A stretch of 53,923 bases of DNA from a virus. Lineage: Duplodnaviria; Caudoviricetes. The notes below the pieces were generated by a model. That model was not told the DNA's origin and made no database searches. It saw only the letters and a list, made by a program, of their open reading frames with translations. Both the position numbers and the translations under genes were made by a program. Below, piece after piece: positions 2,167-51,023 of this stretch (the first letter of the stretch is position 1; the number at the start of each line of letters is the position of its first letter). Where the stretch lies: the IMG/VR virus record IMGVR_UViG_3300009108_000013, positions 1 through 53,923 of that record. One strand, written 5' to 3'.

Positions 2167-5100
2167 GTGAAGAAATTCGTTGCTGTCTTATTGGCAGGTG
2201 CGTTAGTTCTTTCGGGCTGTGGTGGCGGCAGTAGTGACCCTGACACTCCCACAACGACTCTCTTTCCCCCTACCACAACTACTAGTGTTGTCACGACAAC
2301 TACTAATGCAATCGGTACTGTTCCTACCACTACCACCATTGCTTCAACTGTCCTTGAAGAAGTTCCTCTAGCGGATCACTCCATTCCGGATTACACAACC
2401 AATGAGGACACTTTCTCATTTGAGAACTTTGGTGGTGGTGAGGCACCCGCAGATCTGACAGTAAACATGGCGCGTCGCCTGTATGGCGACAACCAAGTCT
2501 GTTCAGATGTAACCGATGGTCAATGTACGCCGTATCCGGTGATCTTGCAGTTGATGTCGCAGGCGAACAAGTCAATGCGTGGAGGGCTGTGCGAAGGCTT
2601 GGCCGTGTTGAGCCTCCGCCTCGCAGGTGACATAGAAACCCTTGCGACCTTCCAAAACACGCAAACTGTTGCGGAACTCATTAAGCAGGATCCGGCACTG
2701 CTTTCTGAAATCGCCTACTGGTATGTAACCCAGTTCGCTATGGAGGTACAGCAGGAAGCCTCCTCTTATCTAGAGAAGTCTCCCACAGAATTGGCAGAGG
2801 TTCTTCTTTACGATTTCTCAGAAGCAGAAAAAGGAAACCCACACACCGGTTTCACAATCGGTATTTACAGCGAACAGGGCGGACACGCCGTCACCCCTTA
2901 CCGGGTAGAAGAGATGGCCGGTGGCTATCGCATCTATATCTACGATTCCAACTGGCCCAACGAGGAACGTTGGATCGACGTATCCAATGACGGTCAGTGG
3001 ATGTATGCCCTTGCTGCGACCAATCCCACGGAACAATCGGAGGCTTGGTTTGGTGGGACAGGGACTATGGAACTCACTCCGATGCGTTCCCGGTCCGGTC
3101 CATTTACTTGCAGTTTCTGCCCTCAGGAAGAGGGAGAAGAGTCGGGGACGATGCTTACCGTTGCCGCTTCTGGTGACAAGCAGATGGCTCTCAAGATTGA
3201 AACTGAATCAGGTGACAGGCTGGGTTATTACGATGGTGCGTTTGTCAATGAGATTGAAGGCGCTACCTATCGTTATCTGATTTCAGGACCAAGCACCGCT
3301 GATCCAGTTTTGGTGTTTCTTCCACCGGGGGTGGAGTCGTTCTCCGCAGATGTTGAAGAGATTGACGTTCCAACTCCTGAAGCAGAAGAGCCGACTTCTA
3401 CGAGGGACAGAATCGAAGAAGCAATAGAGGAACAGATAGAAGAAGAAACTGAACAGAAGTTTTCTCTACTGGTTCTGAGCGAGGAGAAATCTGTTCAGAT
3501 TGAAGCGGTCATCGTGGAGGAGGAAGAACCGGAACGGTGGGAAGAGGCTGAGGAAGAGGCTGAGGAAGAATCTGAAGAGGTTGAGTCGTTGTTGGCCTTC
3601 TCTGAAGAAGCAATCGAAATTGCAGAGATAGAGGAAGCGACTGTCGCGATTGCTGTTGATGCCCTTGAGGTTGAGATCGAACTGGAAGCCGGTCAGCAAA
3701 TTGAGGTGGCTTTTGCCCCAGAACCGGAGCCTGAACCTGAGCAGCCGGGTGTCATAATTCCTGAGTCGGAGCCAGTCAGAGACACGCTGGATATTGCTAT
3801 TCAGGATGAAGCGGGCGAGGTGCTGGCCGAGGTAGAGGTTGACATGACCGCCTACCGGGTTGTCGAACAGGTGTTCGATGAACCGACTGTCACCATTCCG
3901 GATCGACCGGATGTTCCGGCAGTGACCCTGCCCCCTGCACCAGAACCGGTAATCGTTCCCGTTGTTATCGAACTGACGTTCGATGCAGATGTAGGGGAGA
4001 TCTCCACAGAAGAAGTTGAAGTTGAAGCGTGGGTCGCTTCGGATGCTGAATATTTCCAAGCGGTTGCTGAGGATCGCATCGAAGAAGTGTTGGGCGCGTC
4101 CTACGTCGAAGAGATTGAATCAGTTGAAGAGTGGGAAGCCCCTGAAATATTTGAAGAAGATGAGATTGATTTCGTTGAGATTCTTCTCAGTGTGGATGAA
4201 GAGTATTGGGAAGACGAGCAGTGGGATGAAGTCGAATACGACGACGAATATTTTGAAGAAGAACAGGAGTTGATGGACGATCTCTTTGGTGAGGCTGTCG
4301 ATGTCGAAGAACTGTTTGAAGAAGTTGAATCGTTCATGGAGGAGGTCGAAGAGGAGCGCATCGAATTCTTTGAAGAACATGAAGAGTTTGATGAGGAGGA
4401 GTTCTGGGAGGAATACGAAGAAGAATATTACGAAGAGGATTTCGCCTTTCAGGAGTATGACGCCGATTTGGAAGAGGCGTGGATTCTGGAAGAGATGGGT
4501 TTGGAGGAGTGGAACGAAGACCTCATGGGTCCGTCGCCTACCGAAACCGTTGACTGGGAAGAAGAAGACTGGGACGCCTACGACGAGGAAATGGACGCCA
4601 TCTGGGAAGAGGAGATAGAGGATCCAGAGGCGTGGGAAGAAGAACTGCTGGAGGAATTAGGCGTAGAGGAATGGCCTGAGGAGTGGGGTCCATCACCCAC
4701 GGAATCGGCTGAGTGGACTGAAGACGATTGGGACGCTTACGACCAAGAATGGGCCGCGGATGAAGAGGTCATGATCCTTGCAGAAGAGGGTCTGGACGAG
4801 TGGCCCGAGGACTGGGGACCGTCACCTAGCGAGACATGGGAGTGGACGGAGGAGGACTGGCAGGAATACGACGAGGAAATGGAAGCCCAGTGGGAGGAGG
4901 ACTGGGAGGACATGACCGAGGAGTGGACCGAGGAGGAGTGGGACGACTGGAATGAATTCACGGGTGAAGATGTTGATGACTTAGAAGAGCCAGAGTTGTG
5001 GGAAGATGTAGACCCTGATGACGACAACCCCGGATGGGAAGAGGAAGAATGGGAAGAATTTGACGAAGACACAGAATCCGACGGCTCTATTCCTGAAGAA

Positions 5101-6726
5101 GAAGAAGTGGATGAGGAGCAAGTGGATGAAGAGGAACCAGTAGACGAGGAACCAGTAGACGAAGAGCCAGTGGACGAAGAGGAGCCTTGGGACGAGGAGA
5201 TCGAAGAAGACCCAGACTGGGAGTTAGAAGACCCAGACTGGGAGGTAGAAGATCCAGACTGGGATCCAGATTGGGAGCCTGACGAGCCTGACGTTTGTGA
5301 TGATGGCTGGTGCGAGGATCCGGGTTTCGATCCGAACGAGGGGGATGATGACCCCGGTTGGGACGACCCCTATGGGGGCTGCCGAGGCACCTCTGCCTGT
5401 GCTGATGCCCCCGGAGGGTATGAAACTTGGGACGATTACGATCAAGCAAATGACCCCGGCTACTACGACGACTGGGGCGACGAACTGCCGAGTGGGTATG
5501 CAACATGGGCTGACTTCGCCCAAGAGGTAGAAATAGGGGTAGTCAGCGCCGACGTTGCTGCCGAGTATCTGCCCGAAGAGGTGCAGGAAGCGATCATCCC
5601 TGTGGTCGTCGTAGAGACTGTCTACTACCCGACGGTTTCCTACACATACGAGGACGTTCCCATATCGGAAATCCTGTCAACCAGTGTTTCCACGGCTCAG
5701 ACCGGAACGGCTACCAGTTCAGCCGTGACGGCTACGAACGTCACCGGCACTGAGGTAACGGCTGCGAATGTCACTGGTACAGAAGTCTCTACGGATATGA
5801 CCGCCGTGTTGAGTCGTGATGCCAATGACGGGCACTGGCACACTTGGGAGACAACGGTAACTACGACTGAAACTACGACTGAAACTACGACCCAAACTAC
5901 GACAGAAACTACGACTGCTACGACGGTGACCAATACCCTTGTTGACACAACGACTGTTGTTGCTCGTACTGGTTCCGACATGACAACTTGTACGTTCTAT
6001 GACGGGGTGAACGTCGGCTGCTCCACGGCGCGTGGATGGAGTCCTGAAACAACTACTGTCACCGTCGGAGATGCATATACTGAGGTCAGCACAACGACCG
6101 CTACGGCTGACGTTGTAACGAGTGTTACAGCAGATGTTGTAACGACTGCTAGTACGTCAGCGAGTCAACAGGTTGAACAGGGTTGCTCTGAGGGCGGCTG
6201 GACAGGGATGGGGGACTGGTGCATCGTCTCGTCTAGCAGTCACACCGATTACGACTACGTCCAGTTCACATTGGACGAACCGACGAGCATCCGTATCGAC
6301 GCTGAAACGAACCTGACCCACGCCCAGTTCAATACGAACAACGAGGCTGGTGACCCGTACATCTATCTGAACTGGGATACCCACGCTCCTGAAGGAAACC
6401 ACTCAGGAGACGCATCAGCGGTAGGGGTTGGTCAACTGATTGAAAGTGACGATGACGGCGGGAACGACTGTGGGAACACTTGTGTCAACCCGCCTAGTAC
6501 CGCTGTGGATGTGGATGAAACTCCACATGTAATTAGATGCGAAGATGCTGGTACCGATTGTTCAGATTGGCCGGATCTCCCTCCAGTCATCGACAATGTT
6601 AGTGATCAGTGGGATAGTCGCATCGTTCGCACCAATCAGGCTGCGGGCGACTATGTAGTAAGAGGTTCGGTCTATAACGGAAACAATGACGGGTGGTATC
6701 GCTTGACTATAGAAGAGGTAGAATGA
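2167..6726 (+). CDS. Very large acidic lipoprotein (1519 aa)
   Basis: Signal peptide with lipobox LSG-C, Thr linker, globular N-domain, E/D/W-rich central region, Thr-rich stretch, PPC-like C-terminus (ESDDDGG...AGDYVVR). Confidence 0.85.
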   Translation: MKKFVAVLLAGALVLSGCGGGSSDPDTPTTTLFPPTTTTSVVTTTTNAIGTVPTTTTIASTVLEEVPLADHSIPDYTTNEDTFSFENFGGGEAPADLTVNMARRLYGDNQVCSDVTDGQCTPYPVILQLMSQANKSMRGGLCEGLAVLSLRLAGDIETLATFQNTQTVAELIKQDPALLSEIAYWYVTQFAMEVQQEASSYLEKSPTELAEVLLYDFSEAEKGNPHTGFTIGIYSEQGGHAVTPYRVEEMAGGYRIYIYDSNWPNEERWIDVSNDGQWMYALAATNPTEQSEAWFGGTGTMELTPMRSRSGPFTCSFCPQEEGEESGTMLTVAASGDKQMALKIETESGDRLGYYDGAFVNEIEGATYRYLISGPSTADPVLVFLPPGVESFSADVEEIDVPTPEAEEPTSTRDRIEEAIEEQIEEETEQKFSLLVLSEEKSVQIEAVIVEEEEPERWEEAEEEAEEESEEVESLLAFSEEAIEIAEIEEATVAIAVDALEVEIELEAGQQIEVAFAPEPEPEPEQPGVIIPESEPVRDTLDIAIQDEAGEVLAEVEVDMTAYRVVEQVFDEPTVTIPDRPDVPAVTLPPAPEPVIVPVVIELTFDADVGEISTEEVEVEAWVASDAEYFQAVAEDRIEEVLGASYVEEIESVEEWEAPEIFEEDEIDFVEILLSVDEEYWEDEQWDEVEYDDEYFEEEQELMDDLFGEAVDVEELFEEVESFMEEVEEERIEFFEEHEEFDEEEFWEEYEEEYYEEDFAFQEYDADLEEAWILEEMGLEEWNEDLMGPSPTETVDWEEEDWDAYDEEMDAIWEEEIEDPEAWEEELLEELGVEEWPEEWGPSPTESAEWTEDDWDAYDQEWAADEEVMILAEEGLDEWPEDWGPSPSETWEWTEEDWQEYDEEMEAQWEEDWEDMTEEWTEEEWDDWNEFTGEDVDDLEEPELWEDVDPDDDNPGWEEEEWEEFDEDTESDGSIPEEEEVDEEQVDEEEPVDEEPVDEEPVDEEEPWDEEIEEDPDWELEDPDWEVEDPDWDPDWEPDEPDVCDDGWCEDPGFDPNEGDDDPGWDDPYGGCRGTSACADAPGGYETWDDYDQANDPGYYDDWGDELPSGYATWADFAQEVEIGVVSADVAAEYLPEEVQEAIIPVVVVETVYYPTVSYTYEDVPISEILSTSVSTAQTGTATSSAVTATNVTGTEVTAANVTGTEVSTDMTAVLSRDANDGHWHTWETTVTTTETTTETTTQTTTETTTATTVTNTLVDTTTVVARTGSDMTTCTFYDGVNVGCSTARGWSPETTTVTVGDAYTEVSTTTATADVVTSVTADVVTTASTSASQQVEQGCSEGGWTGMGDWCIVSSSSHTDYDYVQFTLDEPTSIRIDAETNLTHAQFNTNNEAGDPYIYLNWDTHAPEGNHSGDASAVGVGQLIESDDDGGNDCGNTCVNPPSTAVDVDETPHVIRCEDAGTDCSDWPDLPPVIDNVSDQWDSRIVRTNQAAGDYVVRGSVYNGNNDGWYRLTIEEVE

Positions 6727-14310: not shown

Positions 14311-14691
14311 ATGAATGATGACAACTTAGGTGGACTTGAGGAGACTCACTGGACGGATAAAGCGAATTGTAAAGGCCGAGGGGTAGCGATGTTTCCCAAA
14401 CGGCATAAAGACATTACTTATATTTCAGAAGCGCGGCGCATTTGCAGGGCGTGCGATGTAAAGCCGGAGTGTTTGCTATACGCCTTGAGTTTTCCGGCAG
14501 CAGACATGCATGGTGTGTGGGCTGGTTTAACTCCGAGGCAGTTGGCTAAAGAGCAAAAGACTAGAGGGGTTAAGCCTACTAAACCCACTATTGCAGAGTT
14601 CATGGCAGACATGCTGCGATACTATAAGGAGGATCCACAGTTTAAGGATGATCTTCCTCCACCTCTAGGGGACTATAATTACGATGACTAG
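14311..14691 (+). CDS. whiB: WhiB-family transcription factor
   Basis: C..CxxC.xxxxC and GVWAG turn. Confidence 0.9.
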   Translation: MNDDNLGGLEETHWTDKANCKGRGVAMFPKRHKDITYISEARRICRACDVKPECLLYALSFPAADMHGVWAGLTPRQLAKEQKTRGVKPTKPTIAEFMADMLRYYKEDPQFKDDLPPPLGDYNYDD

Positions 14692-15298
14692 CAATAATTT
14701 GACTAAAGAGTTTATTGCCGAGCGGGATTTGAAAATGTTTCGGATGCGGCAAGCAGGTTCTTCTCACTCAGAAATTGCTAAACGCTACGAGATTTCCGTG
14801 TCTGCCGTGTCCAAGGGCGTCGGTCGCGTCTTAGAAAGATTAAACCGTGAAGCAGCATATGCATATCCAGAAGTGTTGCGTTTGGAATTGGAACGCTTAG
14901 ACAATTTGCAATCTTCGGTTTGGCCGTTGACGCAGTTCAGGCGCGAAACGCATGGCGATGAAGAGATCGTTGTGGAACCAGACATGAAAGCGATTCAAAC
15001 GGTGCTTGGCATTATGGATCGACGTTCAAAACTTTTGGGTATGGAAGTGCAAAAGGTGGACTTGAATGTTACTGGGGCTACCGATGTGCGTCATTCTTTG
15101 GCTGGGGAAGATTTGGCTACGGTCGGCTTGATTGATTACCGCACCGAATCTATGCAACTTTTGGAATTGATGCGTAAGTCTGGGATTCTGGAAAAGGATG
15201 TTGTGGAGAGGGTATTGGCAGAGGTCGAAGATGAAGAAGAAGTAATTGATGCTGAACTATTACCGGACAAAGACAGTGGAGACAATGATGATGAATGA
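14684..15298 (+). CDS. Probable terminase small subunit / HTH protein
   Basis: N-terminal HTH, LELERLD and IMDRRSKLLG motifs seen in actinophage TerS-like proteins. Confidence 0.6.
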   Translation: MTSNNLTKEFIAERDLKMFRMRQAGSSHSEIAKRYEISVSAVSKGVGRVLERLNREAAYAYPEVLRLELERLDNLQSSVWPLTQFRRETHGDEEIVVEPDMKAIQTVLGIMDRRSKLLGMEVQKVDLNVTGATDVRHSLAGEDLATVGLIDYRTESMQLLELMRKSGILEKDVVERVLAEVEDEEEVIDAELLPDKDSGDNDDE

Positions 15299-42323: not shown

Positions 42324-42629
42324 CTAGTCGTTTGTCAAGTCAGCCACATGACTCAAGTCAATGGCCCTCAAACGCAGGATGTTGTTACGTTCAGCCGGTG
42401 TAGCCCCGCCCCAAACGCCAAACTCTTCCTTCTGGCGCAAGGCGTAATCCAAGCATTCCTTCTGAACTGGGCAACTCCGACAGATTGCTTTCGCAATCGG
42501 AATGTTGGATGACTTCCCAACATCAACGAAGAATACTTCAGTTGGATGGCCCGCACATGCTGCGTCGTCGGCCCATGCTGTTTCTTCAAAGTCTCGTTCT
42601 TCACCGATGTGTCTTTGTCTAGGTTCCAT
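42324..42629 (-). CDS. whiB: WhiB-family transcription factor (second copy)
   Basis: AAC...AKAICRSCPVQKEC...GVWGG. Confidence 0.92.
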   Translation of the reverse strand: MEPRQRHIGEERDFEETAWADDAACAGHPTEVFFVDVGKSSNIPIAKAICRSCPVQKECLDYALRQKEEFGVWGGATPAERNNILRLRAIDLSHVADLTND

Positions 42630-45730: not shown

Positions 45731-46378
45731 CTACAAGTATTCGACCTGCCGGATCTCATGGATCACCTTGTGCAAGTCTATGTCGTTCTCAAAGAAGAAG
45801 CATTCGATAAGGAGATCGCCGTCTTCGTCAGCGTTCTCTGGTTCTACTTTGAAGTATGTTTCCCAAGCACTCTCTGCGTAGAAGCAGGCAGCGATGGGAC
45901 GGTTGTGACGGATCATGGTTAGAGCCTGTGTAGTCCCGTAGCCTTCCATGAGCATCAGGTAGAACACCATTGACGGTGCCCTGTTGATCCCCATGTGGCA
46001 ATGCACCATGACCTTCGCCGTGGGGTTCTCGTCAATGATGGCTTTGTACGCATCCCAGCCCGCATGGAACCATGACGGGGCTTGACTCCCGCCGTCGTCG
46101 TGCGTGCCAAGGTAGACGTATCCCACATCGGGGTACGCCTCTGCTACCAAAGCCTCGTCCGAGTATTCCTCACGAACATCTAGGATGTGCGTGATGCCGT
46201 GGTCCTCTACCCAAGTTCGGAGATGCGGCAACGCACGCTCGCCGTGCGGCAGATCGCCGGATAGGTAGATGTTCGGTGTGATCTGACAGACGGTCCTCCA
46301 CCACTTAGCACCTTCGGTGTTGAGTAGTCCCGAAGGCTCAGGTGGGAAGCATCGTTGTCGTTGTTCTAGGTTGTTCAT
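45731..46378 (-). CDS. Dual-specificity/tyrosine phosphatase
   Basis: VHCHMGINR (HCx5R), GITHILD, general-acid DDG. Confidence 0.88.
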   Translation of the reverse strand: MNNLEQRQRCFPPEPSGLLNTEGAKWWRTVCQITPNIYLSGDLPHGERALPHLRTWVEDHGITHILDVREEYSDEALVAEAYPDVGYVYLGTHDDGGSQAPSWFHAGWDAYKAIIDENPTAKVMVHCHMGINRAPSMVFYLMLMEGYGTTQALTMIRHNRPIAACFYAESAWETYFKVEPENADEDGDLLIECFFFENDIDLHKVIHEIRQVEYL

Positions 46379-46518
46379 GTGCAGAAGCCGCATTCGGTCA
46401 GGCCGTCGCCGGATGGCGACTCGCCGTGACAGTACGGGCACTCCTCTTCTAAGTTAGTTGTTTGCTCTAGTATGCCAGTCTGGTAATACTTTGTCAAGTC
46501 GTAGGTGGAATAGGTCAT
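46375..46518 (-). CDS. 47-aa Zn-ribbon peptide
   Basis: MTYSTYDLTKYY...CPYC...CGFC; ATGA overlaps on both sides. Confidence 0.6.
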   Translation of the reverse strand: MTYSTYDLTKYYQTGILEQTTNLEEECPYCHGESPSGDGLTECGFCT

Positions 46519-49452: not shown

Positions 49453-49483
49453 AATGGTTCCCCTCTTTCAGATAGTTTTATCC

Positions 49484-49572
49484 GGGTAGCGACTATGCTA
49501 CCCAACCGTGCCTGCCATGCCTGACCCGGCCTTGCCTTACCTCGCCCATCGATGCCCCGACTGCCGTGTCAA
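49484..49572 (-). ncRNA. NN-GGY pentamer array, putative guide RNA (VIPR-like)
   Basis: Minus strand ACGGC AGTC GGGGC ATCGA TGGGC GAGGT AAGGC AAGGC CGGGT CAGGC ATGGC AGGC ACGGT TGGGT, ending in GGGTAGC/GCTACCC hairpin; downstream of a Cas7-like operon. Confidence 0.8.
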
Positions 49573-49573
49573 C

Positions 49574-49627
49574 GGGGGAAGGGAGAGGGTGGCGCTCTCA
49601 GCAAACCACCCTCTCCCCACATTCCCC
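49574..49627 (-). other. Strong hairpin between accessory gene and pentamer array
   Basis: GGGAGAGGGTGG/CCACCCTCTCCC 12-bp stem, no U-tail. Confidence 0.75.
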
Positions 49628-49639
49628 ATTATTCTGTTG

Positions 49640-50116
49640 TTACTCTTCGTCCTTGGGGAGTTCTGGCAGATCCTCAATTGCTGCGAGGACTGGTGTGAAC
49701 TCTTCAAAGGCGGAGAGAGCCGCCCGGTATCCACGCAAGGTGGAACGGTACCGGTTGAACAACTGTGCCCGACCGACAGCGTTCTTCAAGGCTACGTTCG
49801 TGGGAACGTACTCCTTGCGACCCGTCACGACCTCAATGGGCACGAACGCACGGACCGTTTCTGATCCGCCTGCCTGAATCAGCAGGACTTCACGGAGAAT
49901 CTTGCGAGCCTCAATGATGTTGTACTGGTAGGCAGCCTCATCAACATCCCATGTGAACCGGTCGTGGAGCGGATGCTCCGGGTCGCGTGCGACCTCAACC
50001 AGTTCCTCCGGGGTGACACCAGCAGACTGAAGGTCTGTGATGATATCGTTGATGTGGTCAACGTTTGTCTTGCGAGGAACAACAACCTCTTCTGTTGTGT
50101 CCGTTACTTCGCGCAT
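49640..50116 (-). CDS. Accessory protein coupled to the Cas7-like gene
   Basis: TPEELVEVARDPEHPLHDRFTWD..EAA...EAR motif; TAATG coupling. Confidence 0.8.
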   Translation of the reverse strand: MREVTDTTEEVVVPRKTNVDHINDIITDLQSAGVTPEELVEVARDPEHPLHDRFTWDVDEAAYQYNIIEARKILREVLLIQAGGSETVRAFVPIEVVTGRKEYVPTNVALKNAVGRAQLFNRYRSTLRGYRAALSAFEEFTPVLAAIEDLPELPKDEE

Positions 50117-50751
50117 TACTCAGCCGCTTCCTCTTCGGTGAGAACCTTCACACCACCGTCTACGGTCTGGAAACGCCCGTAGTCGCCGTTGCTCTTCGGA
50201 GCCGTGGGACGCCACTCACCGATACCGCCGATACCGGCTGCATCCACGATGGAGATGACGCTGTCCAACGACAGGATCGAAGGAATGAACTCAACCTTGA
50301 TGGTTGCGCCCCACTTCTCAAACATGGGACGGTACCGAAGGTCAACGACCCCGGTAGCGTTGCGGACGGCGTCCTCGCGCATGATCGGTTCATCGGTGAA
50401 CCCGGTGAGGCGAACCAACTGGTCCGGACCCTCGCCGTGGACAAAGATGCCCTGACGCAATGCCGTCATGGTGACGCCGTTGAAGAAACGACCGGCGCTT
50501 ACACAAGCGCCCTTGAAACCCGCAGCCGGGAAGCCGTAGGAGCCGTCGGGGAGCAGGTACTTCGCACCCTCAAACAGTTCCGCAGGGTTCTTCGGCAACT
50601 GCAACTTTTTCTTGCCAGCCTGTGCCTGCCTGATCTGCTCTTTGATCTTTTCCGAAAAGTTATTGCAGATCAAGGGCGTAAGACCCTCAACTTCGATCTC
50701 AACAACCGTAGGAACGATCTTGGTCAACTCTGTTGCTACTGACGTAGCCAT
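50116..50751 (-). CDS. Cas7/RAMP-like RNA-binding protein (Vipr-like)
   Basis: IEVEGLTPL first strand, FPAAGFKG helix, RYRPMF..W, Gly-rich loop GIGEWRP...GDYGRF. Confidence 0.75.
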   Translation of the reverse strand: MATSVATELTKIVPTVVEIEVEGLTPLICNNFSEKIKEQIRQAQAGKKKLQLPKNPAELFEGAKYLLPDGSYGFPAAGFKGACVSAGRFFNGVTMTALRQGIFVHGEGPDQLVRLTGFTDEPIMREDAVRNATGVVDLRYRPMFEKWGATIKVEFIPSILSLDSVISIVDAAGIGGIGEWRPTAPKSNGDYGRFQTVDGGVKVLTEEEAAE

Positions 50752-50816
50752 AATAGTTATCCTCTGTTCGTGTATTTACGGTAACTGACCGGAAGGATTT
50801 CCGTGCCAGTAGGGGT

Positions 50817-50845
50817 AGTGTATCGAACCTTTGGGTTCGTGTCAA
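50817..50845 (-). promoter_or_regulatory. Promoter of the Cas7-like operon with palindromic spacer
   Basis: TTGACA-CGAACCCAAAGGTTCGA-TACACT. Confidence 0.75.
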
Positions 50846-50867: not shown

Positions 50868-51023
50868 TTACAAGCCTAGCCTGCGATACCATGCCTTTGC
50901 ATGGATCTCGCATCGGGGATAGTGTCGCCCGTCACGGTATCGGACATGGAATTTCACATCCCCGGAACAAGCACCGACACCCTCGGGCCGATAGTTAGCA
51001 CACGCTGCTGCTGGTAATGGCAT
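50868..51023 (-). CDS. 51-aa Cys/His protein
   Basis: AAGGAGGT SD; MPLPAAACANY...CEIH. Confidence 0.65.
   Translation of the reverse strand: MPLPAAACANYRPEGVGACSGDVKFHVRYRDGRHYPRCEIHAKAWYRRLGL

Follow-up and report, generated by a model that had tools for sequence, protein, structure and literature searches.

A minimal viral locus of two genes, vipr and vap, with a short guide array beside them, is almost certainly a VIPR system, a CRISPR-related RNA-guided silencer of DNA. The locus lies on the minus strand of the stretch analysed here (the window, 53,923 nucleotides), which is positions 1 to 53,923 of IMG/VR record IMGVR_UViG_3300009108_000013, a linear virus contig about 41% complete; the runs containing the stretch are marine. 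All parts of the locus named in the original prediction were found where they had been placed (Table 1). The same prediction had guessed at the architecture of phage VIPR, and the guess proved right on four counts, namely a predicted RAMP fold, homology to the Vipr of phage SUSP1, the co-occurrence of GGY/NN arrays with related genes and a skip code that holds among relatives. The implied novelty did not survive. VIPR was first described in 2026 (10.64898/2026.04.26.720920) and its filament structure has been published too (10.64898/2026.04.26.720927); the staggered arrays and the skip rule likewise appear in preprints of that year. The locus is thus a further example of a published kind, whose system, code and array layout are already in print.

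The predicted lack of cas1, cas2, cas3, cas5 and cas6 held for cas1, which is absent from the record (about 41% complete); for the other four it held among the 65 ORFs scanned with PHROGs, a general scan rather than a search by family. At least 60 repeat families are present in the 54-kb fragment; among the 20 largest, none has CRISPR-like spacing. The features of class 1 CRISPR-Cas, a CRISPR array and cas1 together with several cas genes, were not found in this fragment.

Table 1. Annotated features of the putative VIPR locus and its upstream flank (window coordinates)
Feature	Position	Strand	Basis
51-aa ORF at the site of the relatives' upstream array, last codons read from the remnant	50868..51023	-	phrog_6230
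Putative remnant of upstream staggered vrRNA array, 24 nt, about 5 units, one degenerate slip	50872..50895	-	Arrays of relatives
Sigma-70-type promoter of vipr-vap	50817..50845	-	10 of 12 consensus positions; boxes conserved; phage-wide family
vipr, 211-aa predicted stand-alone RAMP (Cas7-like)	50116..50751	-	Profile, hhalign, model, fold match
vap, 158-aa accessory gene, translationally coupled	49640..50116	-	Family behind related vipr genes; phrog_15946
Strong hairpin between vap and array, 12-bp core 49617-49606 / 49592-49581	49575..49627	-	Folding z, relatives
Array leader and first GGCA slip (49565-49562)	49562..49572	-	Identical in L087, L090 and L091
Single full guide, 9 pentamers, NN = GG AT TG GA AA AA CG CA AT	49517..49561	-	Parse
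Second GGCA slip (49516-49513) and 3-pentamer stub running into the tail	49498..49516	-	Parse
3′ tail, 7-bp stem, loop can pair 5 bp downstream	49472..49503	-	H-type pseudoknot candidate

Vipr is a predicted RAMP related to SUSP1 Vipr

The motifs quoted in the prediction (GLTPL, PAAGFKG and GIGEWRP..GDYGRF) all occur in the 211-residue product of vipr. A search for homologues returned 154 among 679 candidates, and a profile was built from 111 sequences, the query and 110 of the 120 homologues listed. Against 177,635 PDB sequences the sole significant match of this profile was the Vipr of SUSP1 (36pp_D, E = 2.7e-8). A single-sequence search reached only E = 0.013 with the same protein, and the hhalign alignment to it, at 96.9%, was confined to the C-terminal 54 columns. 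Across the six frames of the window the profile gave one match only.

The structure model, with a pLDDT of 91.9, agrees with the fold that had been proposed. Foldseek gave CRISPR RAMPs as every match listed, the first 42 of the 50 matches listed by VIA-align are CRISPR RAMP proteins, and the best RAMP match has Z 11.4 and an rmsd of 4.1 over 160 aligned residues. The modelled fold consists of an RRM core, a thumb and a G-loop, elements shared (Z 8-11) with the RAMPs of class 1 CRISPR systems (Csm3, Cmr4/Cmr6, type VII Cas7 and Csf2); however, the identity to these proteins is only 7-18%, and the guide code here is a five-base, non-contiguous one. The structure of SUSP1 Vipr was absent from both fold searches, the Foldseek library ending on 8 April 2026.

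According to the structural report, R138, D177, W178 and R179 hold GGY in SUSP1 Vipr (10.64898/2026.04.26.720927). These residues, together with K82, align to R141, E179, W180, R181 and R88 of the protein studied here, and R88, R141 and R181 are invariant across the Vipr alignment. H17 of SUSP1 aligns to N30, and K33, E71, M72, G87, K88 and C173 are without a clear counterpart in the alignment.

The accessory gene and the signals around the operon

The predicted translational coupling of vap to vipr takes the form of a one-base overlap (TAATG). Members of the Vap family make up 54 of the 66 distinct ORFs found behind related vipr genes. No sequence likeness to SUSP1 Vap1 was detected, there was no match in Pfam or the PDB, none of the nuclease families matched, and PADLOC returned nothing useful. 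The model was poor (pLDDT 56) and its fold search empty; the ESM Atlas neighbours are unnamed viral clusters. By analogy, Vap would probably help repression without cleavage of DNA.

The predicted promoter has the sequence TTGACA-17-TACACT. A match of this quality is expected by chance about once per 2 kb. The relatives L085, L087, L090, L091 and L097 retain both its −35 box and its −10 box but have different spacers, and it belongs to a phage-wide pattern, which has 42 matches in the window against 1-6 in 20 shuffles. About 38 near-consensus copies of this family (TTGACA, 14 bases, TGCTATACT) lie on both strands between 24705 and 47250, often as overlapping divergent pairs 250-1100 bases apart that are linked by repeated hairpin-like motifs, and this region reads as a long run of small-gene cassettes bounded by promoters. 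The 5′ leader of vipr (50784-50811, minus strand) contains a hairpin with z -2.2, the sequence of which is largely kept in relatives.

The 12-bp hairpin called after vap folds at z -6.8 (0 of 200 shuffles), and its core is kept with G-U and compensatory changes in three relatives, in an alignment read by eye. Because it has no U-run, it is more likely to be an RNA boundary than a plain terminator.

A GGY array with a single full guide

The tract downstream of the hairpin parses as it was written in the prediction, with GGY in 12 of 14 units. It is the only GGY pentamer tract on either strand of the window, and its best in-phase score is 8 out of 10, whereas 60 approximate dinucleotide shuffles of the entire window never exceeded 5. 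The two ‘phase breaks’ correspond to the GGCA/G one-base register slips of staggered vrRNA arrays, in which neighbouring guides overlap by one base (10.64898/2026.04.26.720920). They enclose nine units, and the guide string that had been proposed is the segment that they delimit. Two of these nine units have degenerate scaffolds (GTC and CGA). The NN string is the same in L090, from which the guide differs at one scaffold base, CGA being a step more remote from GGY than its counterpart GGA in L090. L087 has 10 units where the window has the three-pentamer stub.

The closing 7-bp hairpin is also present and may be half of a pseudoknot, with a layout and much of its lettering like two SUSP1 vrRNA tails. 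In a test for such pseudoknots, 4 of 107 array ends were positive, three of them in this sub-clade, against 3 of 321 shuffles. That test had been drawn up with knowledge of the SUSP1 tail, its 107 ends include some internal breaks, and among the four sequences the second stem lacks covariation; the putative SUSP1-like pseudoknot is therefore put forward as a lead. A 5-bp hairpin competes with it, and an Rfam scan gave three sub-threshold matches only. The possibility that deletion of the guide between the slips creates a promoter (TTGACA, 17 bases, TAGCAT) was considered and set aside, because its −10 box differs widely from the TGCTATACT consensus and L087 does not keep the spacing.

Arrays in relatives and the loss of the upstream array

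The prediction expected homologous loci to keep GGY while NN varied, and this pattern was widespread. Of the 90 distinct related vipr genes compared, 77 are flanked by a GGY/NN array on their coding strand and 1 by one on the opposite strand; among the 13 that lack a coding-strand array, 5 are cut within 600 bases downstream. The GGCA/G slip occurs at 60 of the 90 loci. Arrays were parsed in 86 of 101 sequences, with inter-slip segments that peak at 9-10 units and all 16 dinucleotides at NN; the parser favours GGCA, and its count of boundaries is therefore not independent evidence.

These data bear on the simplest alternative, that no RNA guidance exists and a low-complexity pentamer repeat happens to lie beside an orphan Cas7-like RNA-binding gene. 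Such a reading would fit the missing target of the guide (see below), but it has to contend with the strand-specific co-occurrence, the variability of NN, the skip-rule matches described below and the homology to a protein shown to work in this way. We regard it as highly improbable.

The four close relatives that have long arrays, with Vipr proteins 86-91% identical, carry 11-16 or more parsed guides of at least 8 units each, most of them in an array of 0.5-1 kb upstream of the promoter. The remnant in the window matches the 3′-terminal part of the arrays that lie upstream in L085, L087, L088 and L090. The 51-residue ORF matches phrog_6230 with E 4.3e-5 over profile positions 3-44 of 79. Likeness between the window and its relatives starts at 50895, and contigs of the marine runs X9 and X10 agree with the window to 50876 or 50895 and then continue in GGY/NN letters. 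Judged from these alignments, the upstream array is here replaced by a small gene, leaving the remnant. In L097 (about 950-1200) the upstream array is missing too, and a similar short remnant lies behind a different gene; repeated overwriting at this site is suggested. L087 and L088 share 9 of 16 guides, and 1-2 are shared between the other pairs of L085, L087, L088 and L090, a pattern that points to fast turnover.

The skip code and the search for a target

A search of 337 guides of relatives (8-14 units) against related vipr genes gave two matches at 19/20 with a one-base skip. In both, the skip falls on the third codon position. Shuffled guides produced 6 such matches in 1,137,375, and skips of 0, 2 and 3 bases gave no match at 0.9 or above in a control run that missed the second of the two matches, probably since that match sits at the extreme end of the stretch compared. 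One guide of the L020 array (3684-3938) matches the vipr genes of L007/L008 near their start in antisense, and one guide of the L034 array (from 4594) matches the vipr gene of L128 near its end in sense. Both appear to be cases of VIPR directed against VIPR within the staggered clade. For the SUSP1 family, a further report likewise places vipr-targeting guides at these two positions (10.64898/2026.10.15.759431).

From the two wobble-phase matches it follows that the published skip rule applies to slip-delimited segments of the clade, and the idea of a non-contiguous guide thereby holds at clade level (2 of 337 guides of relatives). The matches also support the slips as probable guide boundaries, and we infer that cutting may occur there.

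For the guide of the window itself, no site with three or fewer mismatches was found in the window and none in the record of relative L001. Exact sites numbered 2 in IMG/VR and 13 in GTDB, the latter against about 17 expected, and none of these 15 has the skip at the wobble position of its longest frame. The two IMG/VR sites, which by sequence reading fall in clpX and a fibre-like gene, have the skip at codon position 1; the 13 GTDB sites are at chance level and have no title naming an actinobacterium. All were rejected as chance. Without its first or last unit the guide matched 81 and 18 stretches, respectively. Of the former (80 examined), 77 come from one phage family of 37% GC and are in a non-wobble phase. 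Two wobble-phase sites of the shortened guides reach 16/18 only, and the one inspected shows no link; the stretches matched by the shortened guides were likewise dismissed as chance. The guide specifies 18 bases, too few to stand out in collections of such size. One 10-unit guide of L087/L090 and one guide of phage Quico had no exact match in IMG/VR, and among 356 guides of relatives searched against the window a skip of one was not in excess.

The missing target raises the question of whether the locus is in decay, with intact proteins, a collapsed guide supply and a last guide that has no current target. Vipr could then load from arrays in the unsequenced 59% of the genome or from foreign solo vrRNAs. 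Consistent with this are the replacement of the upstream array, the reduction of the downstream array to one guide and a stub, and the drift of the CGA scaffold. The identity of the guide with that of L090 need not reflect selection, as the next gene downstream in the same block is 95-97% alike as well; selection on the guide was rejected as unproven because this flanking gene is equally conserved. However, both ORFs, the promoter, the hairpin and the tail are intact, the NN string recurs in L090, and run X9 of a separate study has a contig over 49200-49677 that departs from the window at one letter. Moreover, single-guide VIPR systems have been described (10.64898/2026.04.26.720920), and sampling of marine actinobacteria and of their satellites may be sparse. 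Decay is, in our view, unlikely.

Possible transcription of related loci

In one metatranscriptome run, a 1209-nt contig from a relative covers 49628-50801 at a depth of 203 and a second relative contig covers 49207-49566 at a depth of 66; in a second run, parts of vipr and vap are covered. These contigs come from relatives, and such libraries can hold DNA; they are a weak indication that vipr-vap and the array are transcribed in those relatives. The RNA run X15 lacks coverage both upstream of 50808 and over the hairpin; as they come from one study and from contigs only, these gaps were not taken as evidence of transcript ends.

The second contig is relevant to the maturation of the array, as it spans the region of both slips unbroken. 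If the slips were uncut, the whole 94-nt tract and its pseudoknot tail would form one vrRNA, in which a slip would interrupt the filament or shift the target register. The length and the roughly 13 units match the vrRNAs of SUSP1, which have about 100 nt and 9-16 units (10.64898/2026.04.26.720920), the tail resembles that of SUSP1, and in the structural report the filaments of SUSP1 seem to become resolved from the pseudoknot at the 3′ end onwards (10.64898/2026.04.26.720927). On the other hand, contig ends are uninformative, being assembled; the same tail caps four-segment arrays in relatives, no such tail is seen on the upstream arrays, which measure 0.5-1 kb, and each of the two natural matches covers a single inter-slip segment. 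A single long vrRNA is a distinctly unlikely outcome, and we favour guides delimited by the slips.

Comparison with known systems

The locus shares with published staggered VIPR a phage-borne vipr-vap operon without a CRISPR array, the one-base overlap of guides and GGY/NN repeats of 9-16 units. It differs in its single full guide, its gene-replaced upstream array and its pseudoknot-like tail. Processing of staggered arrays is not among the layouts confirmed by sequencing (10.64898/2026.04.26.720920), and our literature search found no study of it.

The type II VIPR of SUSP1 (PDB 36pp) has a homologous Vipr with GGY-binding G-loop and thumb residues, and a tail similar in layout and letters. 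In contrast, this Escherichia phage encodes four separate vrRNAs, each with its own tail, whereas here the guides abut without tails between them; the accessory proteins are unlike in sequence and H17 is replaced by N, as noted above. Neither Vap1 nor separately tailed vrRNAs, the features of type II (SUSP1 / P. fulva), were found here.

Related loci also occur in phages of Mycobacterium (Quico, Florinda, Saal and others) and Gordonia, with 40-47% identity in Vipr and 27-38% in Vap. They too have a GGCA-staggered array, but it lies upstream and holds 3-5 guides. Homologues of both genes, annotated as hypothetical, are present in 27 Mycobacterium and 5 Gordonia phage records; the loci inspected carry a staggered array (for Quico, L098, 2089-3543). 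A literature search found no test of these vipr-vap loci.

Elsewhere in the window (14311-15298, 42324-42629 and 45731-46441) are two WhiB-like regulators, an RNase E-like gene and a dual-specificity phosphatase. An actinobacterial host is suggested by the two WhiB-like genes. An acidic ORF of 1519 residues with internal repeats (2167-6726) has no match in PHROGs.

A model for the locus

Very probably, the locus is a phage VIPR of the staggered type, worn down to one full guide and with the full mechanism. The promoter would drive vipr and vap, and transcription would run on into the array. By analogy with SUSP1, Vipr subunits would polymerise on the RNA, one per pentamer, burying each GGY, and the exposed NN pairs would read double-stranded DNA, two bases at a time with one skipped and no PAM; binding of DNA by the filament would then silence transcription. 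The GGCA/G slips, by breaking the five-base register, would mark the ends of single guides. The guide of the window would bind GGnATnTGnGAnAAnAAnCGnCAnAT in a rival phage, a satellite or a host locus of a marine actinobacterium, and the element bearing this target is predicted to lie outside the collections searched.

A more speculative reading, which we hold to be doubtful, joins the staggered guides and the SUSP1-type tail, two layouts so far described separately, into one combined design in which the GGCA/G slip is a working signal of its own. Either the slip would mark where an undescribed maturation step cuts, or it would shift the register so that one RNA can read across it. A cutter could be Vipr, Vap or the RNase E-like protein of the phage (14684-15298), and the slips would also be crossover points for the gain, shuffling and loss of guides. 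If true, the maturation and turnover of staggered guides could be studied on the 94-nt tract as a minimal natural substrate.

As a staggered VIPR, the locus enlarges a still young family of compact DNA binders that can be programmed, with a member that is marine and probably actinobacterial. Two natural matches in its relatives confirm the one-nucleotide skip code for GGCA-staggered guides, and among its close relatives, whose guides number from 1 to 16 or more, arrays can be seen to have been shuffled, shrunk and overwritten. For the question of how staggered arrays are cut, no construct is simpler than one with a single guide; the same pair of proteins occurs in culturable phages of Mycobacterium smegmatis and Gordonia, in which it can hence be tested.
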